Below, piece by piece: positions 5,645 through 15,039 of a DNA stretch of 64,000 bases. The notes beneath the pieces were generated by a model that saw only the letters and a program-made list of their open reading frames with translations, did no database searches and had not been told where the DNA came from. Every line of letters begins with the position of its first letter. Positions within the stretch are counted from its first letter, which is position 1. The DNA comes from Candidatus Thorarchaeota archaeon (GTDB lineage Archaea > Asgardarchaeota > Thorarchaeia > Thorarchaeales > Thorarchaeaceae): contig JAEOTX010000044.1 of NCBI GenBank assembly GCA_016839605.1, positions 31,854 through 95,853 of the forward strand, in the 5' to 3' direction. The position numbers and the translations under genes are program-made.

Positions 5645-6544
5645 TTGTACTTGCTCAGGAGGCTGGCTTCTCGAATCAGAGGCAAAAAAAAGGAAGAGCC
5701 GAAGGCAGTGGACACTCCTGATGAGCCTCCAGCAATTCGTGAGGCCATCGATGAGCCTCGCGAGGCAACGCCCCCCGAAGAGGTCGAGGTTGCTCCCGGA
5801 GAGCCTTTCACAGCACCCCGAGAAACGCCCCGAGTGGGCAAGCGTGAACCACTGCCCACAGGAACCCTGGTTGCTAGTACAGCTACAACTGAACTCAGAA
5901 TTGACGAAACATCGACCTCCAATATTGCCCGGGCCGCTCGAATCCGTCCTCAAGCAGTGTCAGAGATAGTTGCTGGAGAGGCATTGAAGCGTGATGAGGA
6001 AGGGCGCATACACATCAAAATCGTATTCTACGGCCCATCTCTGTCCGGAAAGACTACCGCACTCAGATGGCTCTTTGCCAATGTAAGGGCACTAGCTAAA
6101 GGTAAGATCGTGGAGATATCAGATGAGCTAGGCCGGACCACCTACTTTGACTTCATACCTGTTTCTGCAGGTGAAAAGGTGATTTTTGATGTGTTCACCG
6201 TAGCAGGACAGCGAAGACATGCCACACAGCGAATTAACGTACTGCGTGGTGTAGACGGCATGATATTCATGGCTGACTCAACACCCGAGCAGATGAATGA
6301 GAACTTGGCTTCAATCCAAGAGCTTCGTATCGCGCTAGGCACTGATAGAATGGCAACACTACCCATTGTGGTTTCTCTCAACAAACGAGACCTTCCTAAT
6401 GCTCTCCCAGTAGATCGTATGATACAGATGCTTGATCTAGATGGCTATCCAGTCTTTGCTACGGTTGCCACCGAAGGGAAGAACCTCCTCAGGATGTTCC
6501 AGCGAATCCTCAGAGACTCACTCGTCTACAAAGTTGGCGTTTAG
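5645..6544 (+). CDS. MglA-like small GTPase with a long Pro/Glu-rich N-terminal extension
   Basis: C-terminal ~185 aa carry KIVFYGPSLSGKTT (P-loop), TYFDFIP, FTVAGQ (G3), GVDGMIFMADS and SLNKRDLPNALP (G4), matching the MglA pattern. The start is uncertain: an in-frame GTG within AVSEIV (~5950) would remove the extension. Confidence 0.75.
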   Translation: MYLLRRLASRIRGKKKEEPKAVDTPDEPPAIREAIDEPREATPPEEVEVAPGEPFTAPRETPRVGKREPLPTGTLVASTATTELRIDETSTSNIARAARIRPQAVSEIVAGEALKRDEEGRIHIKIVFYGPSLSGKTTALRWLFANVRALAKGKIVEISDELGRTTYFDFIPVSAGEKVIFDVFTVAGQRRHATQRINVLRGVDGMIFMADSTPEQMNENLASIQELRIALGTDRMATLPIVVSLNKRDLPNALPVDRMIQMLDLDGYPVFATVATEGKNLLRMFQRILRDSLVYKVGV

Positions 6545-6643: not shown

Positions 6644-6719
6644 AGCCCCGTGGTGTAGCGGTCCAGCATCAGTGGTTCTGGCCCACTGGACCTAGGTTCG
6701 AGTCCTGGCGGGGCTACCA
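6644..6719 (+). tRNA. tRNA-Gln (anticodon CTG), encoded CCA
   Basis: Hand-folded cloverleaf. Acceptor AGCCCCG/CGGGGCT with an A1-U72 pair; anticodon stem AGTGG/CCACT with loop TTCTGGC. T arm is CTAGG-TTCGAGT-CCTGG, followed by discriminator A and CCA. No intron. Confidence 0.9.
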
Positions 6720-7064: not shown

Positions 7065-7844
7065 ATGGAGCGCATTGATTTCGGCTGGGATGATTTCTGG
7101 GCTGAGGTTTTCAGAGTCAAATTTCGTGGGTCCATTCCAGGAATTCAGCAATACGATGAGATGGTTGTTGATTTCTGTTTAGGCGCTCTGAATCTGGGAA
7201 AGGGCAAGAAACTCCTTGACATTGCCTGTGGCGCCGGAGATCAGAGTATACTGTTCGCAAAACGGGGCCTACATGTTTATGGATTTGATCTTTCTACAAG
7301 GCTGATTGAGGTGGCAAAAGCAAAATTAACCGAAGCCAAACTTGAGATTGACTTCTCAACGGGTGACATGAGGGAGATTGATTTTGCGAGTCAGTTTGAT
7401 GCTGCTGTTCTCCTCAGTCATAGTTTTGGGTTCTTCAATCATGATGAGAATAAACGTGTTCTGGATGGGTCATTTAATGCACTAGTTGAGGGCGGACGAT
7501 TACTCCTAGATCTGATGAATCCCTACAACCTTCCACGATTTCAGAAGACATGGACCAAGCTGGAGGGCGGCTTCCTATTGAGTGAGCCGCATGTTCTCGA
7601 TGCACCAGCCGGAGTGTTGAGAGGACGTCCTGCAACCTTCATCGATGTGGCCAATAATCGCATGATTGAGATGAATGAGGATGCACTTGCTGGTAATGAC
7701 ATCAGGATGTACACTGCTCTTGAGATTCGAGAGATGCTATCACAGGTGGGCTTCTCTAAGACAGAGCTCTATGGACAGAATAAACTCCCAAAGATGCCAT
7801 ACGCAGCAAACTCTGAGCGCATGGTTGTAGTAGCCACCAAATAG
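7065..7844 (+). CDS. class I SAM-dependent methyltransferase
   Basis: 259 aa with SAM-binding motif I LLDIACGAGDQS and the acidic loop YGFDLS. Confidence 0.8.
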   Translation: MERIDFGWDDFWAEVFRVKFRGSIPGIQQYDEMVVDFCLGALNLGKGKKLLDIACGAGDQSILFAKRGLHVYGFDLSTRLIEVAKAKLTEAKLEIDFSTGDMREIDFASQFDAAVLLSHSFGFFNHDENKRVLDGSFNALVEGGRLLLDLMNPYNLPRFQKTWTKLEGGFLLSEPHVLDAPAGVLRGRPATFIDVANNRMIEMNEDALAGNDIRMYTALEIREMLSQVGFSKTELYGQNKLPKMPYAANSERMVVVATK

Positions 7845-7969: not shown

Positions 7970-10192
7970 GTGAGAAAAGTGGTCAAGGTAAAGGACCCAA
8001 CTGAAATCAAGAAACTGATCATGTCCGATGATTATGAGCACAAGCGCATCATCAGTATCAGCGCGCACATAGATCACGGCAAGACAACTACCACCGACTA
8101 CCTGTTGAGACGTGCAGGACTTATGAGCGATGCTGCAGCTGGTCAGGCTCTGATGACTGACAGTGATGATGAGGAACAGGAGCGAGGTATTACTATCTTC
8201 ACCTCAGTTGTTATGCTCAACTTCGAGGTAGATGGTGAAGAGTACCTAGTTCAGCTATCAGACACTCCTGGACACCTTTCGTTCACAGGGGAAGTATCAC
8301 GCGCATTGAGAGCTAGCGATGGTGCAGTTATTCTCGTTGATGCACTCGAAGGAGTCATGACGCAGACTGAGACCAATATCAGACTAGCAGTGGGTGGTGA
8401 AGCCTGCAAACCAGTCCTCTTCATCAATAAGGTTGACCGTCTCATCAACGAGCTAAAGCTCCCACCTAAGAAGGTCTACGAGCGGATTGACATCATTGTC
8501 GCAAAGGTCAACGCACTGATCAAGAAAGTAGCTCCAAAGGAATATGCGAAAGAATGGAGAGTGGCTTTTGAAGATGGGAGTGTTGCTATTGGCAGTGCAA
8601 AGACCGGCTGGGCTTTTACTATGAAGACCCTAAAGAAGAAGGAAATTCAGCCCATCGTTGTATTTGAGAAGTATAACGAAGGTGACGAGGTCTGGCTCAG
8701 GGAAAATCTGCCATTGGATGATGCTCTATTAGAGATGATCGTACATCATCTCCCGAACCCCAAGGATGCCCAGAAGTATAAGATTCCTCGAATCTGGAAG
8801 GGTGACCTTGATACTCCAGAAGGCAAGTCACTATTAGCTTGTGACCGCGATGGCCCGCTGCTTGGGATGATCACTAAGATATTCGTTGATCCAAAGAGCA
8901 AGAGACCTACACTGATTGGGAGAGTATTCTCAGGGACAGTGAAGTCTGGGCAGTCAATTCGTCTGGTCAACATGAAGCAGAATGTTACCGTCAAGCGACT
9001 CGGTGTCCAGGAGATTACCGACCTTCTCCCCATGGATGAGGTCCCTGCAGGCAACCTGTTCTCAGTGTTTGGTTTCATGTGTCCTTCAGGTGAGTCCTTT
9101 GTTCAAGTAGACTCAGGAATGCCTGGCTTCGAAGCTATTGAATATGTCAGTGAGCCTGTCGTAAGCAGAAGCATCAAGCCTGTCGACCCCCAGGATATAG
9201 CAAAGCTGGGAGAAGTTGTGTCAAAATGGATTATGGCGGACCCAACTGCCAGATTCACTCACGACAAAGAATCCGGAGAGTACCGGCTTGATGGAATTGA
9301 CCCTCTTCAGATTGAGATTCTGACAAAACGCATCCACGAACAGGTGAAGATCATTATCTCGGAGCCTATCATTGTCTATCGTGAGAAAATCACTGAACGC
9401 GGCTCGGAGTTCCACACAAAGTCTCCAAACGGTCACAATCGGATAAGACTATACATGGAGCCTTTGGATGAGAAGGCTGTTGAGCTCATCAAGAAACAGA
9501 GGATCAAAAAGGACCAGAATGCACGTGAGCGTGCAGCAATCCTTCGTGATGAGGCAGGATGGGATGCAAAAGAAGCACGTAAGATTCTAGATATCTACGA
9601 GTCAAGCATGCTTGTTGATGCCATGAGTGGAGTTCAGAGATTCGATAGGATCTACTCATACCTCGAAACAACTTTCCGTGAGTTCATTGATCAGGGACCG
9701 ATTGCAAAAGAGCCTATTATGGGAGTGAAAGTTATCCTGACAGATGCCACTGTGCACAACGATCCTGCACACACTGGATACAACGAGGTTGCGACAATGA
9801 CTAGTTCTGGTCTCAACATGAGCTTCCTAACAGGCGCGGCAGGTCTGTACGAGCCAATTCTGAATGCTGACATCAAGACTCCAACTGATACACAGGGTGG
9901 CATCATCAAGGTCCTCACAGGCCATCGAGGTCAGATTGTCACTATTGAAGCTGAAGAAGATACAGTTACGATCAGAGGAACATTACCAACAGCAGAAACA
10001 ATTGGCATAGCTGATGAGTTTCGCAGTGCTGCCGCTGGCAGAAGCTTCTTTGGTTATGAGTTTCGAGGATTTGAGCCAGTTCCTGGAAGTATGCAAGAAG
10101 AGAAGATCCTAGAGATTCGAGCAAGGAAAGGAATGCCAGAGGAGATGCCATCCACGAGTTCTTGGAGTCGCTGGGTGTACAAACGGACTTAA
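7970..10192 (+). CDS. elongation factor 2 family GTPase (divergent aEF-2, possibly an EF-2 paralogue)
   Basis: 740 aa with AHIDHGKTT (G1), DTPGH (G3) and NKVDR (G4) plus a five-domain length. The domain IV loop reads HNDPAHTGYNE rather than the usual H-x-D-x-x-HRGPAQ. GTG start. Confidence 0.9.
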   Translation: MRKVVKVKDPTEIKKLIMSDDYEHKRIISISAHIDHGKTTTTDYLLRRAGLMSDAAAGQALMTDSDDEEQERGITIFTSVVMLNFEVDGEEYLVQLSDTPGHLSFTGEVSRALRASDGAVILVDALEGVMTQTETNIRLAVGGEACKPVLFINKVDRLINELKLPPKKVYERIDIIVAKVNALIKKVAPKEYAKEWRVAFEDGSVAIGSAKTGWAFTMKTLKKKEIQPIVVFEKYNEGDEVWLRENLPLDDALLEMIVHHLPNPKDAQKYKIPRIWKGDLDTPEGKSLLACDRDGPLLGMITKIFVDPKSKRPTLIGRVFSGTVKSGQSIRLVNMKQNVTVKRLGVQEITDLLPMDEVPAGNLFSVFGFMCPSGESFVQVDSGMPGFEAIEYVSEPVVSRSIKPVDPQDIAKLGEVVSKWIMADPTARFTHDKESGEYRLDGIDPLQIEILTKRIHEQVKIIISEPIIVYREKITERGSEFHTKSPNGHNRIRLYMEPLDEKAVELIKKQRIKKDQNARERAAILRDEAGWDAKEARKILDIYESSMLVDAMSGVQRFDRIYSYLETTFREFIDQGPIAKEPIMGVKVILTDATVHNDPAHTGYNEVATMTSSGLNMSFLTGAAGLYEPILNADIKTPTDTQGGIIKVLTGHRGQIVTIEAEEDTVTIRGTLPTAETIGIADEFRSAAAGRSFFGYEFRGFEPVPGSMQEEKILEIRARKGMPEEMPSTSSWSRWVYKRT

Positions 10193-10302
10193 CTCAGAAT
10201 CAATTGAGTGACGATCAGCTGGTCGTCGCTCAAGAACCCCCTTTTTCGCAGTCTGACAATTTCGATGGATATTTGTCCTGCTATGTGGCATGGCTACTTA
10301 CA

Positions 10303-11634
10303 ATGAACGAGGAAATTGTTGAAGAGCTAGAAACTCTGCTTTCATTTCAGACGATAAGTGATCCGCTGGATAAGGGAGCAAATCTGGGCTGTGCCCAGTA
10401 CATTGGTAATCGGCTAGAAGAAGCTGGATTCCTCTCAGAGATTCTGGAGTTCGAAGGATATCACACAGTTTTTGGTCGCTATGGTCAAGGTGAGTTCAAA
10501 ATCCTATTTCTTGCCCACTTTGATGTAGTACCAGTAGGAGAAGGATGGGAGTCGGACCCCTTCAAGCTTCGTGTTGATGGTGACGTTGCCTATGGCCGAG
10601 GCTCTTCTGACAATAAGGGAAACATTGTTTCTCTCCTTCTTCTAGCAGACAGACTGAAGGAGAGTGCGTATCCGTGCACAGTAATGATTGCGGCAAGTGG
10701 GGATGAGGAAATCGGCGGCCGAAATGGCGCCTTCAAGCTCAAGGAACATCTCATCAAGCAGGGCTTGTTTCCTGAGTATGCAGTCATTACTGATGGAGTT
10801 GATCAGCAGATTATTCACCGGCGACGCAACGTATTGCCAACATACATCAAGGCAAAGAAATCCATGGCAAAGCTACGAGGGAGATCTGAAACGATACGCT
10901 TCGAGACCGATGTGTTCGGTTCATCCTCACGACATTCTGCATACATGCGGCCTAGTGTGGATCGCCACGCGATGCTTGCTGCATCAAAGTATCTTGATGT
11001 GAATCCATACACAGTCGTGAAGGATGTAAGAGGATCCTTCCTGAAATCAAATGTGGTACCTGGATGGATAGAGGTTGACCTCCTCCATCCGGATGACTCG
11101 CAACCAGAGTCTGACTATGATGAGGCATTGACTGGTCTCATGAGGTCACTTCTTCCTGTTTCTCAAGCGGCTTTTCCGACAGAACACTCTGACCGTGGAA
11201 AAATCATCTCCCCAAATCTGCTCTCCCTTGAGAGTGATCTCTGGACCTTGTACTGTGATATTCGTGCTATGACAAATGATGGAGAGGCTGTGGAAAAGGC
11301 GATTAATAGAGCATTGGAGGGGCGAGTTGACCTGTTCTCACTGCGTGTGAGTCCTGGTGTTGGGTATGTCGACACAGACCCTAATTCTCGTTTGATAAGA
11401 GCAGCACGTTGGGCACTTGAGAAGGAGGGAATCCCGCACCGAGTGATAGAGGGATATGGGGCCTCCGACTCTCGCTTCTTTGCTGGTGAGGGGTGTGAAC
11501 TGTTTGACTTCGGTCCTCGAGGAGGAAACACTCACGGGCCCAATGAATGGGTATCACTATCATCGATAAAGGAGAATGCACAGTTCTACCACACGCTGAT
11601 TGATGTGCTCCTGCGGAAACCCGGTGGAATGTGA
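10303..11634 (+). CDS. M20 family metallopeptidase (ArgE/DapE/CPG2-like)
   Basis: Motifs LAHFDVVP, GRGSSDNKG and SGDEEIGG. The ATG at 10303 is preferred because the ORF-track start at 10162 overlaps the EF-2 3' end. Confidence 0.8.
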   Translation: MNEEIVEELETLLSFQTISDPLDKGANLGCAQYIGNRLEEAGFLSEILEFEGYHTVFGRYGQGEFKILFLAHFDVVPVGEGWESDPFKLRVDGDVAYGRGSSDNKGNIVSLLLLADRLKESAYPCTVMIAASGDEEIGGRNGAFKLKEHLIKQGLFPEYAVITDGVDQQIIHRRRNVLPTYIKAKKSMAKLRGRSETIRFETDVFGSSSRHSAYMRPSVDRHAMLAASKYLDVNPYTVVKDVRGSFLKSNVVPGWIEVDLLHPDDSQPESDYDEALTGLMRSLLPVSQAAFPTEHSDRGKIISPNLLSLESDLWTLYCDIRAMTNDGEAVEKAINRALEGRVDLFSLRVSPGVGYVDTDPNSRLIRAARWALEKEGIPHRVIEGYGASDSRFFAGEGCELFDFGPRGGNTHGPNEWVSLSSIKENAQFYHTLIDVLLRKPGGM

Positions 11635-11667: not shown

Positions 11668-14600
11668 TTACGATTCACTTAGAGATATCACTACAACGAG
11701 TTTTTCTTCACCAAAGGTATATTCTTCCTTGAAATCTCCTGTGGGCTTCTTTGTTTGCTTCAAGCTGACTGCCAACGTTTCTTCTGTGATGTATGCTTGA
11801 TGAAACTCAACAGCCTCAGCTACTCGCCTGCTTGAGGAATATTGAACTTCTATCCTGTCGCTAACGTTTAGATCGGCTGACTTACGTACATCTTGAACTC
11901 TTCTAACGAATTCACGTGCTAATCCTTCTAGCCTAAGCTCATGTGTTATTTCAGTGGTCAAGGCAGCCAGATACCCTCCCTCTGAAGCTGTCGAAAAGCC
12001 CTCCTTGGCTTCAACAATCACCTCGACTTCATCAGGCAGTATATCGAACTTCTCACCGTTCACCTTTACTTCTACAGATTTGCCATCCTGAAGTTGAGTT
12101 GAAGCTTCACGTGGATCTAGACTCAGTATCGCGTTTCTAAGTACAGGGAACTTGGCACCGTATTTTTGACCGAGTTGCTTAGGCAGTGGTTTGAGCTGAT
12201 AGCTTACTACTTCTGCAGCAACATCCAGTAGTCGTACATTCTTAACATTCAATTCGTCGCCAATCAACTCTGCATAGCGGTCCACAACATCTCGTTCTTT
12301 GTCTAATCCAACAGCAAATGCGATTTCAGATAGTGGTTGACGGAGCTTACGATTTGCTTTATTTCTAGCCGCATGACCCAGCGATACTAGTCGGAGCACT
12401 ATGGCCATCTCATTATTTAGCCTCTCGTCTATTGAATCACTCACAGGCCAATCACAATGATGAATGCTCTCAGGTGCTCCTGAATCGACATTTCGGGTTA
12501 GATTCTGGTGCATCACTTCCGATACAAATGGAACAAATGGTGCAAGCAATCTAGAGAGATTTACCAAGACTCGATATGATGTGTCATAGGCTGCATTCTT
12601 ATCGGCATCAACTTCGTCACTAGCACCAGCTTCAGCCCAAAAGCGGCGACGACTTCGCCGCAGATACCAATTGCTGAGGTGATCTATGAAGCGTGCTATC
12701 GAAGCAGTTGCCATATTCGGCTCATACGATTCCAAATAGTCTGTGACTTCACGATTGACTTCATTCATCCTTGAGAGTATCCAACTGTCTAACAGGCTTT
12801 GAGAGAGTTTCACATTATCTCTAGGAACCCATCCATCAATGAGAGCATATGTGACAAAGAATGAATAGACATTCCAGAGTGGAATGAGGAAATGCCGCCG
12901 TGCCTCGTCACCGAGAGAGTACCCAAAGGCAAGGTCCTTCTCAGGTCTGTGAGTACAAAAGACCCAACGCATTACATCTACCCCCATTAAGTCAGCGGCT
13001 TCGTTAAATTCAACCATATTGCCCCACGATTTGTGCATCTCTCTTCCATCCTCACCAGTCAACATGGCATAGGTGAAGACATTTCTAAATGGTGCTCTTC
13101 GTTCAAGGATTGTGCTCATTGCTAGCAGGCTATAGAACCAGTTTCTAAACTGTCCTGGAAAGCTCTCGCTGATTAGTTCTGCAGGAAACCACTTGTTCCA
13201 ATACTCTCTATCAGAGTTGTACCTCATTGTACTCAATGAAACTATCCCAGCATCTAGCCAAGGATTTCCGACATCTGGTATTCGCTTCATTCTCTGGCCG
13301 CATTCACTGCACTCAATCTCAATCTCATCAATAAACGGTCGATGAGGTGAATGACCTTCGAACACATCCCATCCAGTAAGAGCACGATTTTGCAGTTCCT
13401 CTCTGCCACCAATCACATCAAAATGCCCGCAGTTGGAACACTCCCATATGGGTAATGCAAGTCCCCAATATCGTTTCTTGGAAATCATCCAGTCATCCAT
13501 ATTTCGTAGCCAATCTAGCTCCCTCTCTTTTCCGAAGGACGGGTACCAGTTGGTTTCGTTAGTAACAACTTCCATGATTTGGTAACGTAGATTGCTTTCT
13601 TTTTGATCACCTGTGACCTCTTCATAGGGAATATCGAGTTTGGTTCCCATTGAGATGAACCACTCATCAACCAGGCGAAAGACCAATTCCTCTTGGCAAC
13701 GCCAGCATACAGGATATCTGTGAGTGTAGTCCTCTACCTTGTAAGTCAATTCTTTCTTGGTCAGATTATCAAAGATTGGTTGAGCGACCGCACTCACATT
13801 CATGCCTGACAACCAATCGAATCCGTCAATGAAGATGCCATTCTCAGTAAGCGGCGCGATCGCAACAAGATCAAGTTCTTTGGAGAGCTGGAAGTCTTCT
13901 GCTCCGCATCCAGGCGCAATATGTACAATTCCAGTACCTTCCACTTCTCCTACTTCATCCCACAGTATCACCTTGTGCTTCCCAGCTACTCCACTCTCTT
14001 TCTGAGCTGGGAGTTCGTCAAAGGGACCATGATAGACCCATCCCTCCATATCAAAGCCAACTATCTCTTCCACTACTTCGTAATCACCTTTCAGCATGTG
14101 TAGAGTTCCACGACTCAAGTAGAATGATTCTTCACCTTGACGCACTTTGACATAGGCCAGTTCTGGGCCGACTGCTGCAGCAACATTGCTGCTTAGAGTC
14201 CAGGGCGTTGTTGTCCATACAAGAAGACTCTCTCCAGGACGATCGACAAGTGGAAATCTCAACGTGATGCTTGGATGGGTTAGCTCCCGGTAGCCCTCAG
14301 TAACTATCTCATGTTGACTGATGGCTGTTCCACAACGAGCACACCACGGCATAACATCTCGACCTTTGTTTACCCACCCTCTATCATGACATGACTTCAG
14401 CATAGACCAGATAGTATAGTTATTCTCATCAGAAAATGTGAAGTATGATCCGCCGACCTCTGGTGTACCTAGTCTACCAACGAGCTGCTCAGCAGATCCT
14501 GTAACTGGGCCATCTACACCATCGATTGTCATTATTGCTAAAGGGTCATTGCCCAGAGCATCGTGCAATTTCTGAAGATTCTCTAAATTATCCCATTCCA

Positions 14601-15039
14601 TCCAGTAACCCAGGCGTATACTCTGCTTTGTCTGAACTGCAGCATATTGCAGAACACGTTGTTTACATAATATGATGAATTTCTCAAGTCCGTATTCCTC
14701 TATGTCTGGCTTGCCCTTGAAACCCATGTCTCGCTCAACGTTGACCTCGACCCAGAGGCCTTGGCAGTCAAAGCCATTCTGATAGCGCGTCTGATATCCC
14801 TGCATGGCCTTGAAACGATGATACAGATCTTTGTACGTTCGTCCCCACCCATGATGAACTCCCATAGGATTGTTGGCAGTGATGGGACCATCAAGAAAAG
14901 ACCATATCGGTCCTTTTGCCCTGAGTCTTCTCAGCTTATCAAATATCTGCTCATCCTCCCAAAACTTGAGCATATCTTTCTCCTGAGCAACGAAATCAAC
15001 TTGACTAGGTACTGGTTTGAACACTTCCATCACCCACAT
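11668..15039 (-). CDS. ileS: isoleucine--tRNA ligase
   Basis: 1123 aa with class I signatures: a HIGH-region variant (NPMGVHHGW), a KMSKS-type loop (EMHKSWGN), a CP1 editing-domain-length insertion and a zinc-binding CWRC motif. Confidence 0.95.
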   Translation of the reverse strand: MWVMEVFKPVPSQVDFVAQEKDMLKFWEDEQIFDKLRRLRAKGPIWSFLDGPITANNPMGVHHGWGRTYKDLYHRFKAMQGYQTRYQNGFDCQGLWVEVNVERDMGFKGKPDIEEYGLEKFIILCKQRVLQYAAVQTKQSIRLGYWMEWDNLENLQKLHDALGNDPLAIMTIDGVDGPVTGSAEQLVGRLGTPEVGGSYFTFSDENNYTIWSMLKSCHDRGWVNKGRDVMPWCARCGTAISQHEIVTEGYRELTHPSITLRFPLVDRPGESLLVWTTTPWTLSSNVAAAVGPELAYVKVRQGEESFYLSRGTLHMLKGDYEVVEEIVGFDMEGWVYHGPFDELPAQKESGVAGKHKVILWDEVGEVEGTGIVHIAPGCGAEDFQLSKELDLVAIAPLTENGIFIDGFDWLSGMNVSAVAQPIFDNLTKKELTYKVEDYTHRYPVCWRCQEELVFRLVDEWFISMGTKLDIPYEEVTGDQKESNLRYQIMEVVTNETNWYPSFGKERELDWLRNMDDWMISKKRYWGLALPIWECSNCGHFDVIGGREELQNRALTGWDVFEGHSPHRPFIDEIEIECSECGQRMKRIPDVGNPWLDAGIVSLSTMRYNSDREYWNKWFPAELISESFPGQFRNWFYSLLAMSTILERRAPFRNVFTYAMLTGEDGREMHKSWGNMVEFNEAADLMGVDVMRWVFCTHRPEKDLAFGYSLGDEARRHFLIPLWNVYSFFVTYALIDGWVPRDNVKLSQSLLDSWILSRMNEVNREVTDYLESYEPNMATASIARFIDHLSNWYLRRSRRRFWAEAGASDEVDADKNAAYDTSYRVLVNLSRLLAPFVPFVSEVMHQNLTRNVDSGAPESIHHCDWPVSDSIDERLNNEMAIVLRLVSLGHAARNKANRKLRQPLSEIAFAVGLDKERDVVDRYAELIGDELNVKNVRLLDVAAEVVSYQLKPLPKQLGQKYGAKFPVLRNAILSLDPREASTQLQDGKSVEVKVNGEKFDILPDEVEVIVEAKEGFSTASEGGYLAALTTEITHELRLEGLAREFVRRVQDVRKSADLNVSDRIEVQYSSSRRVAEAVEFHQAYITEETLAVSLKQTKKPTGDFKEEYTFGEEKLVVVISLSES

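Follow-up and report, generated by a model that had tools for sequence, protein, structure and literature searches.

Some archaea that lack diphthamide are known to carry altered forms of translation elongation factor 2 (EF-2). Narrowe et al. (2018, Genome Biol Evol 10:2380, PMC6143161) described substitutions in the archaeal factor, aEF-2, of Asgard archaea and marine Korarchaeota that lack the diphthamide synthesis (dph) genes: R702 is "universally replaced by a threonine" and H701 is retained, E660 is changed to Arg or Lys in 21 of 22 proteins, and K584 of the SPHKHN loop is not conserved. These proteins come from genomes, Thorarchaeota among those analyzed, that also encode aEF-2p, a protein without both loops, for which back-translocation was raised as a possible role, while some other dph-lacking lineages (Geoarchaea and some Korarchaeota) have a single canonical-looking EF-2 (PMC6143161). 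Eme et al. (2023) stated that dph genes occur only in Hodarchaeales and otherwise repeated the 2018 result. Here we analyzed a stretch of 64,000 nucleotides (the window) from a Candidatus Thorarchaeota archaeon of the family Thorarchaeaceae (assembly GCA_016839605.1, contig JAEOTX010000044.1, positions 31,854 to 95,853, or C192:31854-95853 in our numbering), whose genome is a 3.08-Mb bin of 259 contigs and is 80% complete. The window holds a gene that a first-pass annotation, made from the letters alone, had described as a divergent EF-2 paralog. We are highly confident that the product of this gene is instead aEF-2, the GTP-dependent translocase that works on the ribosomes of a diphthamide-lacking Thorarchaeote, and that aEF-2p is a different gene, located downstream.

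The window gene encodes a full-length aEF-2 with altered domain IV loops

The gene is uninterrupted, and its true start is probably GTG 7979, three codons into the open frame, which would give a protein of 737 aa, because the orthologs are mostly 737 aa long and have the N terminus MVKVKD. The protein contains all five domains of EF-G/EF-2 (G domain, II, III, IV, and V), as seen both in the Pfam matches GTP_EFTU, GTP_EFTU_D2 (26.3 bits, under its 30.3-bit gathering cutoff), EFG_III, EFG_IV, and EFG_C, and in the end-to-end alignment with Pyrococcus horikoshii aEF-2 (5H7J), the best structure match with an E value of 1.7e-166; 8HL1 was matched as well. TIGR00490, the NCBIfam equivalog model of aEF-2, is by far the top model. 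The nearest homologs are 82 to 96% identical and are named in their sources as Thorarchaeota or Promethearchaeota "elongation factor EF-2" or "GTP-binding protein." The gene and its motifs are as follows:

7970..10192 (+), aEF-2 gene, uninterrupted open reading frame of 740 codons from GTG 7970
8060..8086 (+), G1/P-loop SAHIDHGKT (aa 31-39), intact; the core AHIDHGKT is the same as in canonical EF-2
8261..8296 (+), G3/switch II DTPGHLSFTGEV (aa 98-109); catalytic His102 kept, Asp104 replaced by Ser
9293..9316 (+), domain III motif GIDPLQIE (aa 442-449) in place of the near-universal G-x-GELH-x-E (G444D, H447Q)
9419..9439 (+), second loop of domain IV, KSPNGHN (aa 484-490); the tRNA-contacting Lys (K584, Drosophila numbering) replaced by Gly488
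9638..9655 (+), third-loop region RFDRIY; its Arg560 is the charge-swapping change E660R, the companion of R702T
9752..9790 (+), diphthamide loop VHNDPAHTGYNEV (aa 595-607); target His601 kept, Arg replaced by Thr602 (R702T)

The GTP-binding motifs are intact (SAHIDHGKT at aa 31 to 39 for G1, DTPGH at aa 98 to 102 for G3, and NKVD at aa 153 to 156 for G4). On these points the first-pass annotation had read the letters correctly: the GTP-binding motifs are all present, as are the three motifs that it quoted (SAHIDHGKT, DTPGHLSFTGEV, and VHNDPAHTGYNEV), and the modifiable His is kept while the Arg that follows it is changed. Because Thr602, Arg560, Gly488, and His601 stand at the published positions, we identify the window gene as the bona fide aEF-2 of the 2018 paper, and the two further features of that group, a co-resident paralog (C192:102761-104857) and monophyly, were also found. 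With the loop HNDPAHTG and no dph genes, the protein departs from a diphthamide-modified canonical aEF-2, which has H-x-D-x-x-H-R-G together with dph2, dph5, and dph6. The biology of this gene is already known, the altered-loop form having been published in 2018 (PMC6143161).

The departures from canonical EF-2 motifs are not chance, because they are near-invariant in the 120 closest homologs and clade-wide across Asgard lineages. KSPNGHN, H-x-DPAHTG, and GH[LI]SFTGEVS each occur in 120 of these 120 homologs and GIDPLQIE in 119, and the exceptions are conservative, such as the L/I alternation in switch II or the variable third position of the diphthamide loop.

As a member of its family, the window protein would bind GTP via the intact G1-G4 motifs, dock on the ribosomal GTPase center, and insert domain IV into the decoding center, leading to tRNA-mRNA translocation; we infer this translocase activity from sequence comparison. 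His601, at the tip of domain IV, is presumably unmodified because dph2, dph5, and dph6 are absent, and the Arg-to-Thr and Glu-to-Arg pair may keep the packing between the loops, as modeled by Narrowe et al. (PMC6143161).

The genome's aEF-2p lies downstream on the same contig

Searching the whole genome with TIGR00490 revealed a second EF-2-family gene at C192:102761-104857 (-), encoding about 698 aa, which is on the same contig, 61 kb downstream, and outside the window. It scores 425.7 + 59.8 bits and is more divergent than the window gene. Its P-loop and switch II are canonical (VIAHIDHGKTT, DTPGHIDFSSHV; DTPGHIDF), the tip of its domain IV has no His (LRFEAPETSWRDV; ...PETSWRDV), and Pfam gave no match to EFG_IV in this protein. 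The His and the domain IV loops that aEF-2p has characteristically lost are therefore missing from the downstream gene, while His601, the SPNGHN loop, and a match to EFG_IV are all present in the window protein. The downstream gene is the genome's real EF-2 paralog, aEF-2p. Both genes were found on one contig in at least 14 genomes of the family, mostly 40 to 60 kb apart, and therefore both belong to a stable chromosomal region.

In one Asgard family, f4 (L068, G002:C29:11500-18000), a His/Thr-type aEF-2 has a His-less paralog as its direct neighbor, with about 1.2 kb between the two genes and divergent orientations; the open frame of this paralog is 919 aa long, and a simple pattern search recognized no G1 motif in it.

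Asgard EF-2 proteins fall into three classes

We tabulated switch II and both domain IV loops for 79 EF-2-family sequences from Asgard genomes, which gave three classes:

Class A: switch II GHVDF/GHIDF; loop 2 SPNKH; diphthamide loop HEDPxHRGPAQ; among the sampled genomes, only in dph2-positive ones (9/9)
Class B: switch II GH[IL]S[FW]TGEVS; loop 2 SPNGHN-like (S-x-N-x-x-N); diphthamide loop H-x-D-P-x-H-T; present once per genome in the 20 sampled dph2-negative genomes (the window gene is of this class)
Class C: switch II canonical; no recognizable loop 2; no His; the second copy in the dph2-negative genomes

A maximum-likelihood tree (IQ-TREE, LG+C20+F+G4 PMSF) was built from 65 sequences and 730 columns, with sequences taken from Asgard genomes and from 50%-identity representatives of a library of 1.84 billion proteins. 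All 15 class B (His/Thr) sequences formed one clade, with support of 100/100 and present in 100% of the bootstrap trees, which lies within canonical archaeal aEF-2 at the end of a long stem (0.83). The window protein is placed within the Thorarchaeaceae subclade of class B, and the genome's own paralog is in a separate His-less group. No bacterial EF-G was identifiable as an outgroup among the 150 best representatives; therefore, the tree is unrooted and carries no conclusion on the direction of the duplication or on which copy is orthologous to the ancestral Asgard EF-2.

The two copies also differ in their rates of change. The aEF-2 orthologs are 77 to 93% identical to the window protein across the same genomes in which the aEF-2p orthologs are only 57 to 86% identical, the respective values in the sister family being 72% and 47%. 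Terminal branches measure 0.05 to 0.11 for aEF-2 versus 0.18 to 0.34 for aEF-2p, so aEF-2p diverges about twice as fast. Together with the invariance of the motifs, the constraint on aEF-2 is the pattern expected of the essential factor.

Diphthamide genes are all but missing from the family, and EF-2 genes come in pairs

Searches for dph2 (PF01866), dph5 (TIGR00522), and dph6 (PF01902) detected none of the three in the 80%-complete genome, while four of four archaeal control genomes were positive. Because the bin is incomplete, we widened the search to its relatives within a survey of 201 Asgard genomes, in which the family set comprised 57 genomes (the bin under study and 56 others at least 85% and up to 99% complete). 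Within the family, dph2 was found in 0 of 57 genomes and dph5 in 0 of 41, and the one dph6 match among 41 genomes comes from a small contig in a bin that is 7% contaminated. Across the survey, 29 of the 201 genomes have dph2; they belong to six family-level groups (f7, f13, f16, f17, f19, and f24), which may or may not all be Hodarchaeales. A Dph6-type diphthamide synthase (PF01902, E value 1.3e-34; L006:68-604, +) was noticed about 860 bp from a canonical EF-2 (L006:1468-3669, -) in G059, an Asgard genome that has dph genes.

Almost all genomes of the family have exactly two EF-2-family genes. A match above the TIGR00490 cutoff was found in none of the 57 family genomes, compared with 16 of the 201 Asgard genomes that have one. 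Where a family genome gave three EF-2 matches, those traced (G058, G114, and G126) proved to be genes split at contig ends. The expectation of the first-pass annotation that a second, diverged EF-2 copy goes with loss of diphthamide is borne out by this genome, which has two EF-2-family genes and no detectable dph2, dph5, or dph6.

A different situation was noticed in the dph2-positive genomes of f19, genus g40 (3 to 5.9 Mb), where the EF-2 matches (about 1e-128) come in two pieces and not as one full-length canonical match; the EF-2 gene of these genomes may be interrupted or unusually structured.

Class B is also marked by fixed changes outside domain IV

By comparing 19 canonical, 15 class B, and 31 His-less sequences, we found 11 sites that are conserved (at least 85%) within both the canonical and the class B groups but differ between them. 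Two are the published changes (E560R and R602T), and the nine others are N27I, D104S, T110S, V136N, Q139L, L141V, G444D, H447Q, and V468I. D104S is in switch II, two residues past the catalytic His, and G444D/H447Q turn the GELH of domain III into DPLQ, while the His-less paralogs retain the canonical residue at most of the class B-specific sites. Among the 150 best representatives, 138 have the switch II motif, and position 104 in these is Asp in 130, Glu in 5, Gln in 1, and Ser in 2, both Ser being class B; likewise, DPLQ occurs among the 150 only in the two class B representatives with that motif. On this sampling, Asp104Ser is a synapomorphy of the class B clade.

The main text of Narrowe et al. 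(PMC6143161) contains "switch" 0 times and "domain III" once, in a database family name, and its discussion of aEF-2 concerns domain IV only; in the literature that we searched, the term aEF-2p is used in no other paper. The clade-fixed changes in switch II, in the adjacent helix (V136N/Q139L), and in the GELH of domain III are therefore a small addition to that text. These changes are fixed and non-conservative, at sites that hardly vary elsewhere in the EF-2 of archaea and eukaryotes or in the aEF-2p paralogs. One tentative idea, which we consider possible but rather unlikely, is that these sites make up one interface with a re-tuned coupling of GTP hydrolysis to domain III/IV movement. If true, such coupling could compensate for the missing diphthamide, or it could reflect coadaptation with aEF-2p or an altered ribosomal GTPase center. 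The list of these substitutions could help in choosing sites for mutagenesis or structural studies when Asgard translation systems can be worked with.

The gene neighborhood is family-level synteny

The first-pass annotation had named the two flanking genes correctly:

7065..7844 (+), class I SAM methyltransferase, upstream of aEF-2 (Pfam Methyltransf_25/11)
10162..11634 (+), M20 peptidase, downstream of aEF-2 (Pfam Peptidase_M20)

The true start of the M20 gene is probably internal, near 10303, because ortholog alignments span only about 431 to 470 of its 490 aa. The genera of the family have in common a block made of an aminotransferase-like gene, an Arf/MglA-like GTPase, tRNA-Gln, the methyltransferase, aEF-2, M20, and IleRS. 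The methyltransferase is upstream of aEF-2 in 14 of the 15 Thorarchaeaceae genomes sampled, four of which have an insert of about 1 kb between the two genes, and it does not adjoin aEF-2 in five genomes of other Asgard families (f2, f3, f5, f9, and f15). The sister family keeps M20 alone, and the Odin-like, the Loki-like, and two other dph-negative lineages have none of the block's neighbors. We therefore describe the methyltransferase/M20 context as family-level synteny within Thorarchaeaceae.

This context had been offered as a sign of paralogy, the gene lying away from other translation genes, and we rejected that argument: the class A EF-2 of dph-positive Asgard genomes likewise has no ribosomal-protein genes as neighbors but a CCA-adding enzyme, a GNAT protein, an AIR-synthase-related protein, HypF, and, in one case, a Dph6-like gene. 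The methyltransferase was also considered as an alternative EF-2-modifying enzyme, and this functional link was rejected as well, since the adjacency is limited to Thorarchaeaceae and the gap is about 1 kb in four genomes.

Two other members of the block have features of their own. The Arf/MglA-like small GTPase (PF00025; window 5645-6544, +) has about 115 additional residues, rich in Pro and Glu, at its N terminus. In 14 of 15 genomes, covering most of the sampled genera, it is found upstream of tRNA-Gln (6644-6719) and of the methyltransferase. The IleRS (window 11668-15039, -; 1,122 aa) is the only one of the genome and matches TIGR00392 with 658 bits in two stretches. In most other genera of the family, the same slot after aEF-2/M20 is occupied by an IleRS that is about 30 to 32% identical (e.g., L090:306-3503, 1,065 aa, 851 bits), while the window type is common to genera g1, g9, and g15 at 80 to 87%; the pattern resembles a substitution at the same locus by a distant type of IleRS.

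Alternative explanations

Several observations weigh against identifying the window gene as the working aEF-2. Its 661.6 bits are below the curated TIGR00490 cutoff of 738.45, so that the protein lacks the score of a canonical aEF-2 and was justly called divergent in the first-pass annotation. Asp104Ser is non-conservative and GELH is changed, which suggests that the GTPase cycle may differ from that of canonical EF-2, and it is the paralog, not the window gene, that keeps the canonical forms of the switch II and GELH sites. Moreover, with a genome 80% complete, a third EF-2 copy would be possible judged from this genome alone. The low score and the incomplete genome, with the altered sites in switch II, domain III, and domain IV and the lack of adjoining translation genes, also make up the case for the claim of the first-pass annotation, namely, that the window gene is itself a diverged, aEF-2p-like paralog and the canonical EF-2 is elsewhere in the genome. 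We regard this as very improbable and already contradicted by the present data. The only other EF-2-family gene is the more divergent one, without the His and without the EFG_IV match. A third, canonical EF-2 in the missing 20% of the genome was rejected, because no genome of the family has a match over the cutoff, bins up to 99% complete included, and the traced triple matches were contig-split genes. Additionally, the window protein carries the published aEF-2 signature (R702T, E660R, and loss of K584; PMC6143161), not that of aEF-2p, and joins the other His-bearing Asgard copies with support of 100/100. Judged by the refutation set out in the first-pass annotation, a sole EF-2 gene that groups with canonical aEF-2, the outcome is mixed: the genome has a companion EF-2-family gene, but the window protein groups among canonical archaeal aEF-2 and not among paralogs.

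A second alternative is a division of labor, which also seems improbable to us. Neither copy would then be a full translocase alone; the His/Thr copy and aEF-2p would each perform part of the elongation cycle, for example, forward translocation versus back-translocation, fidelity, or rescue, and together they would offset the loss of diphthamide. Both genes co-occur in nearly all the dph-negative Asgard genomes surveyed, and their changes are complementary: switch II, the helix, and GELH are canonical in aEF-2p but altered in aEF-2, and the reverse holds at the tip of domain IV. Back-translocation was, as mentioned, raised for aEF-2p by Narrowe et al. (PMC6143161). However, this support is purely comparative, and the Geoarchaea and some Korarchaeota without dph live with a single canonical-looking EF-2 (PMC6143161); a few surveyed genomes have one match only, though incompleteness could account for these. 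We keep to the identification of the window gene as the translocase aEF-2 and of the downstream gene as aEF-2p.

Annotation consequences and comparison with known systems

The window gene illustrates a published but mechanistically unexplained fact, that translation in most Asgard archaea proceeds without diphthamide and relies on a translocase with a rewritten decoding tip, beside a second EF-2-like GTPase. The value of the present analysis is mainly corrective, since the flagged gene is a housekeeping factor and not a paralog. Curated profile cutoffs fail on the class B clade. In f15 and f10 (loci L014, L015/L071, L017, and L018/L081), the His-less paralog is above the TIGR00490 cutoff with 770 to 815 bits, whereas the class B protein with the His that is encoded beside it in f15 genomes has about 707 bits; in f8 (G007; L022/L069), the His-less copy has 731 bits versus 684 for class B, both under the cutoff. 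The class B copies in this comparison are at loci L070 and L072. Cutoff-based annotation can therefore name the wrong copy "EF-2."

The window protein and aEF-2p both belong to the EF-2 family, are encoded together in the same genomes, and have intact GTPase motifs. The aEF-2p proteins, however, lack the diphthamide His, the loop 2 motif, and the EFG_IV match, have canonical switch II and GELH, show about 2-fold higher divergence, and form separate groups in the tree.

With canonical aEF-2 (TIGR00490; 5H7J), the window protein shares the five domains, G1-G4, His102, and His601, and the two align end to end without large indels. It differs in having Thr for the Arg after the His, Arg for the partner Glu, Gly for the loop 2 Lys, Ser for the switch II Asp, and DPLQ for GELH, in its score below the cutoff, and in coming from an organism without the diphthamide pathway.

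The closest correspondence is with the aEF-2 clade of Narrowe et al. The window protein has the same H-x-D-x-x-H-T-G loop (R702T), E660R, and loss of K584, sits in the 100/100 clade, and comes from a genome with a co-resident aEF-2p and no dph genes. Nothing of substance separates the two, and what we list in addition are only the further clade-fixed changes outside domain IV.

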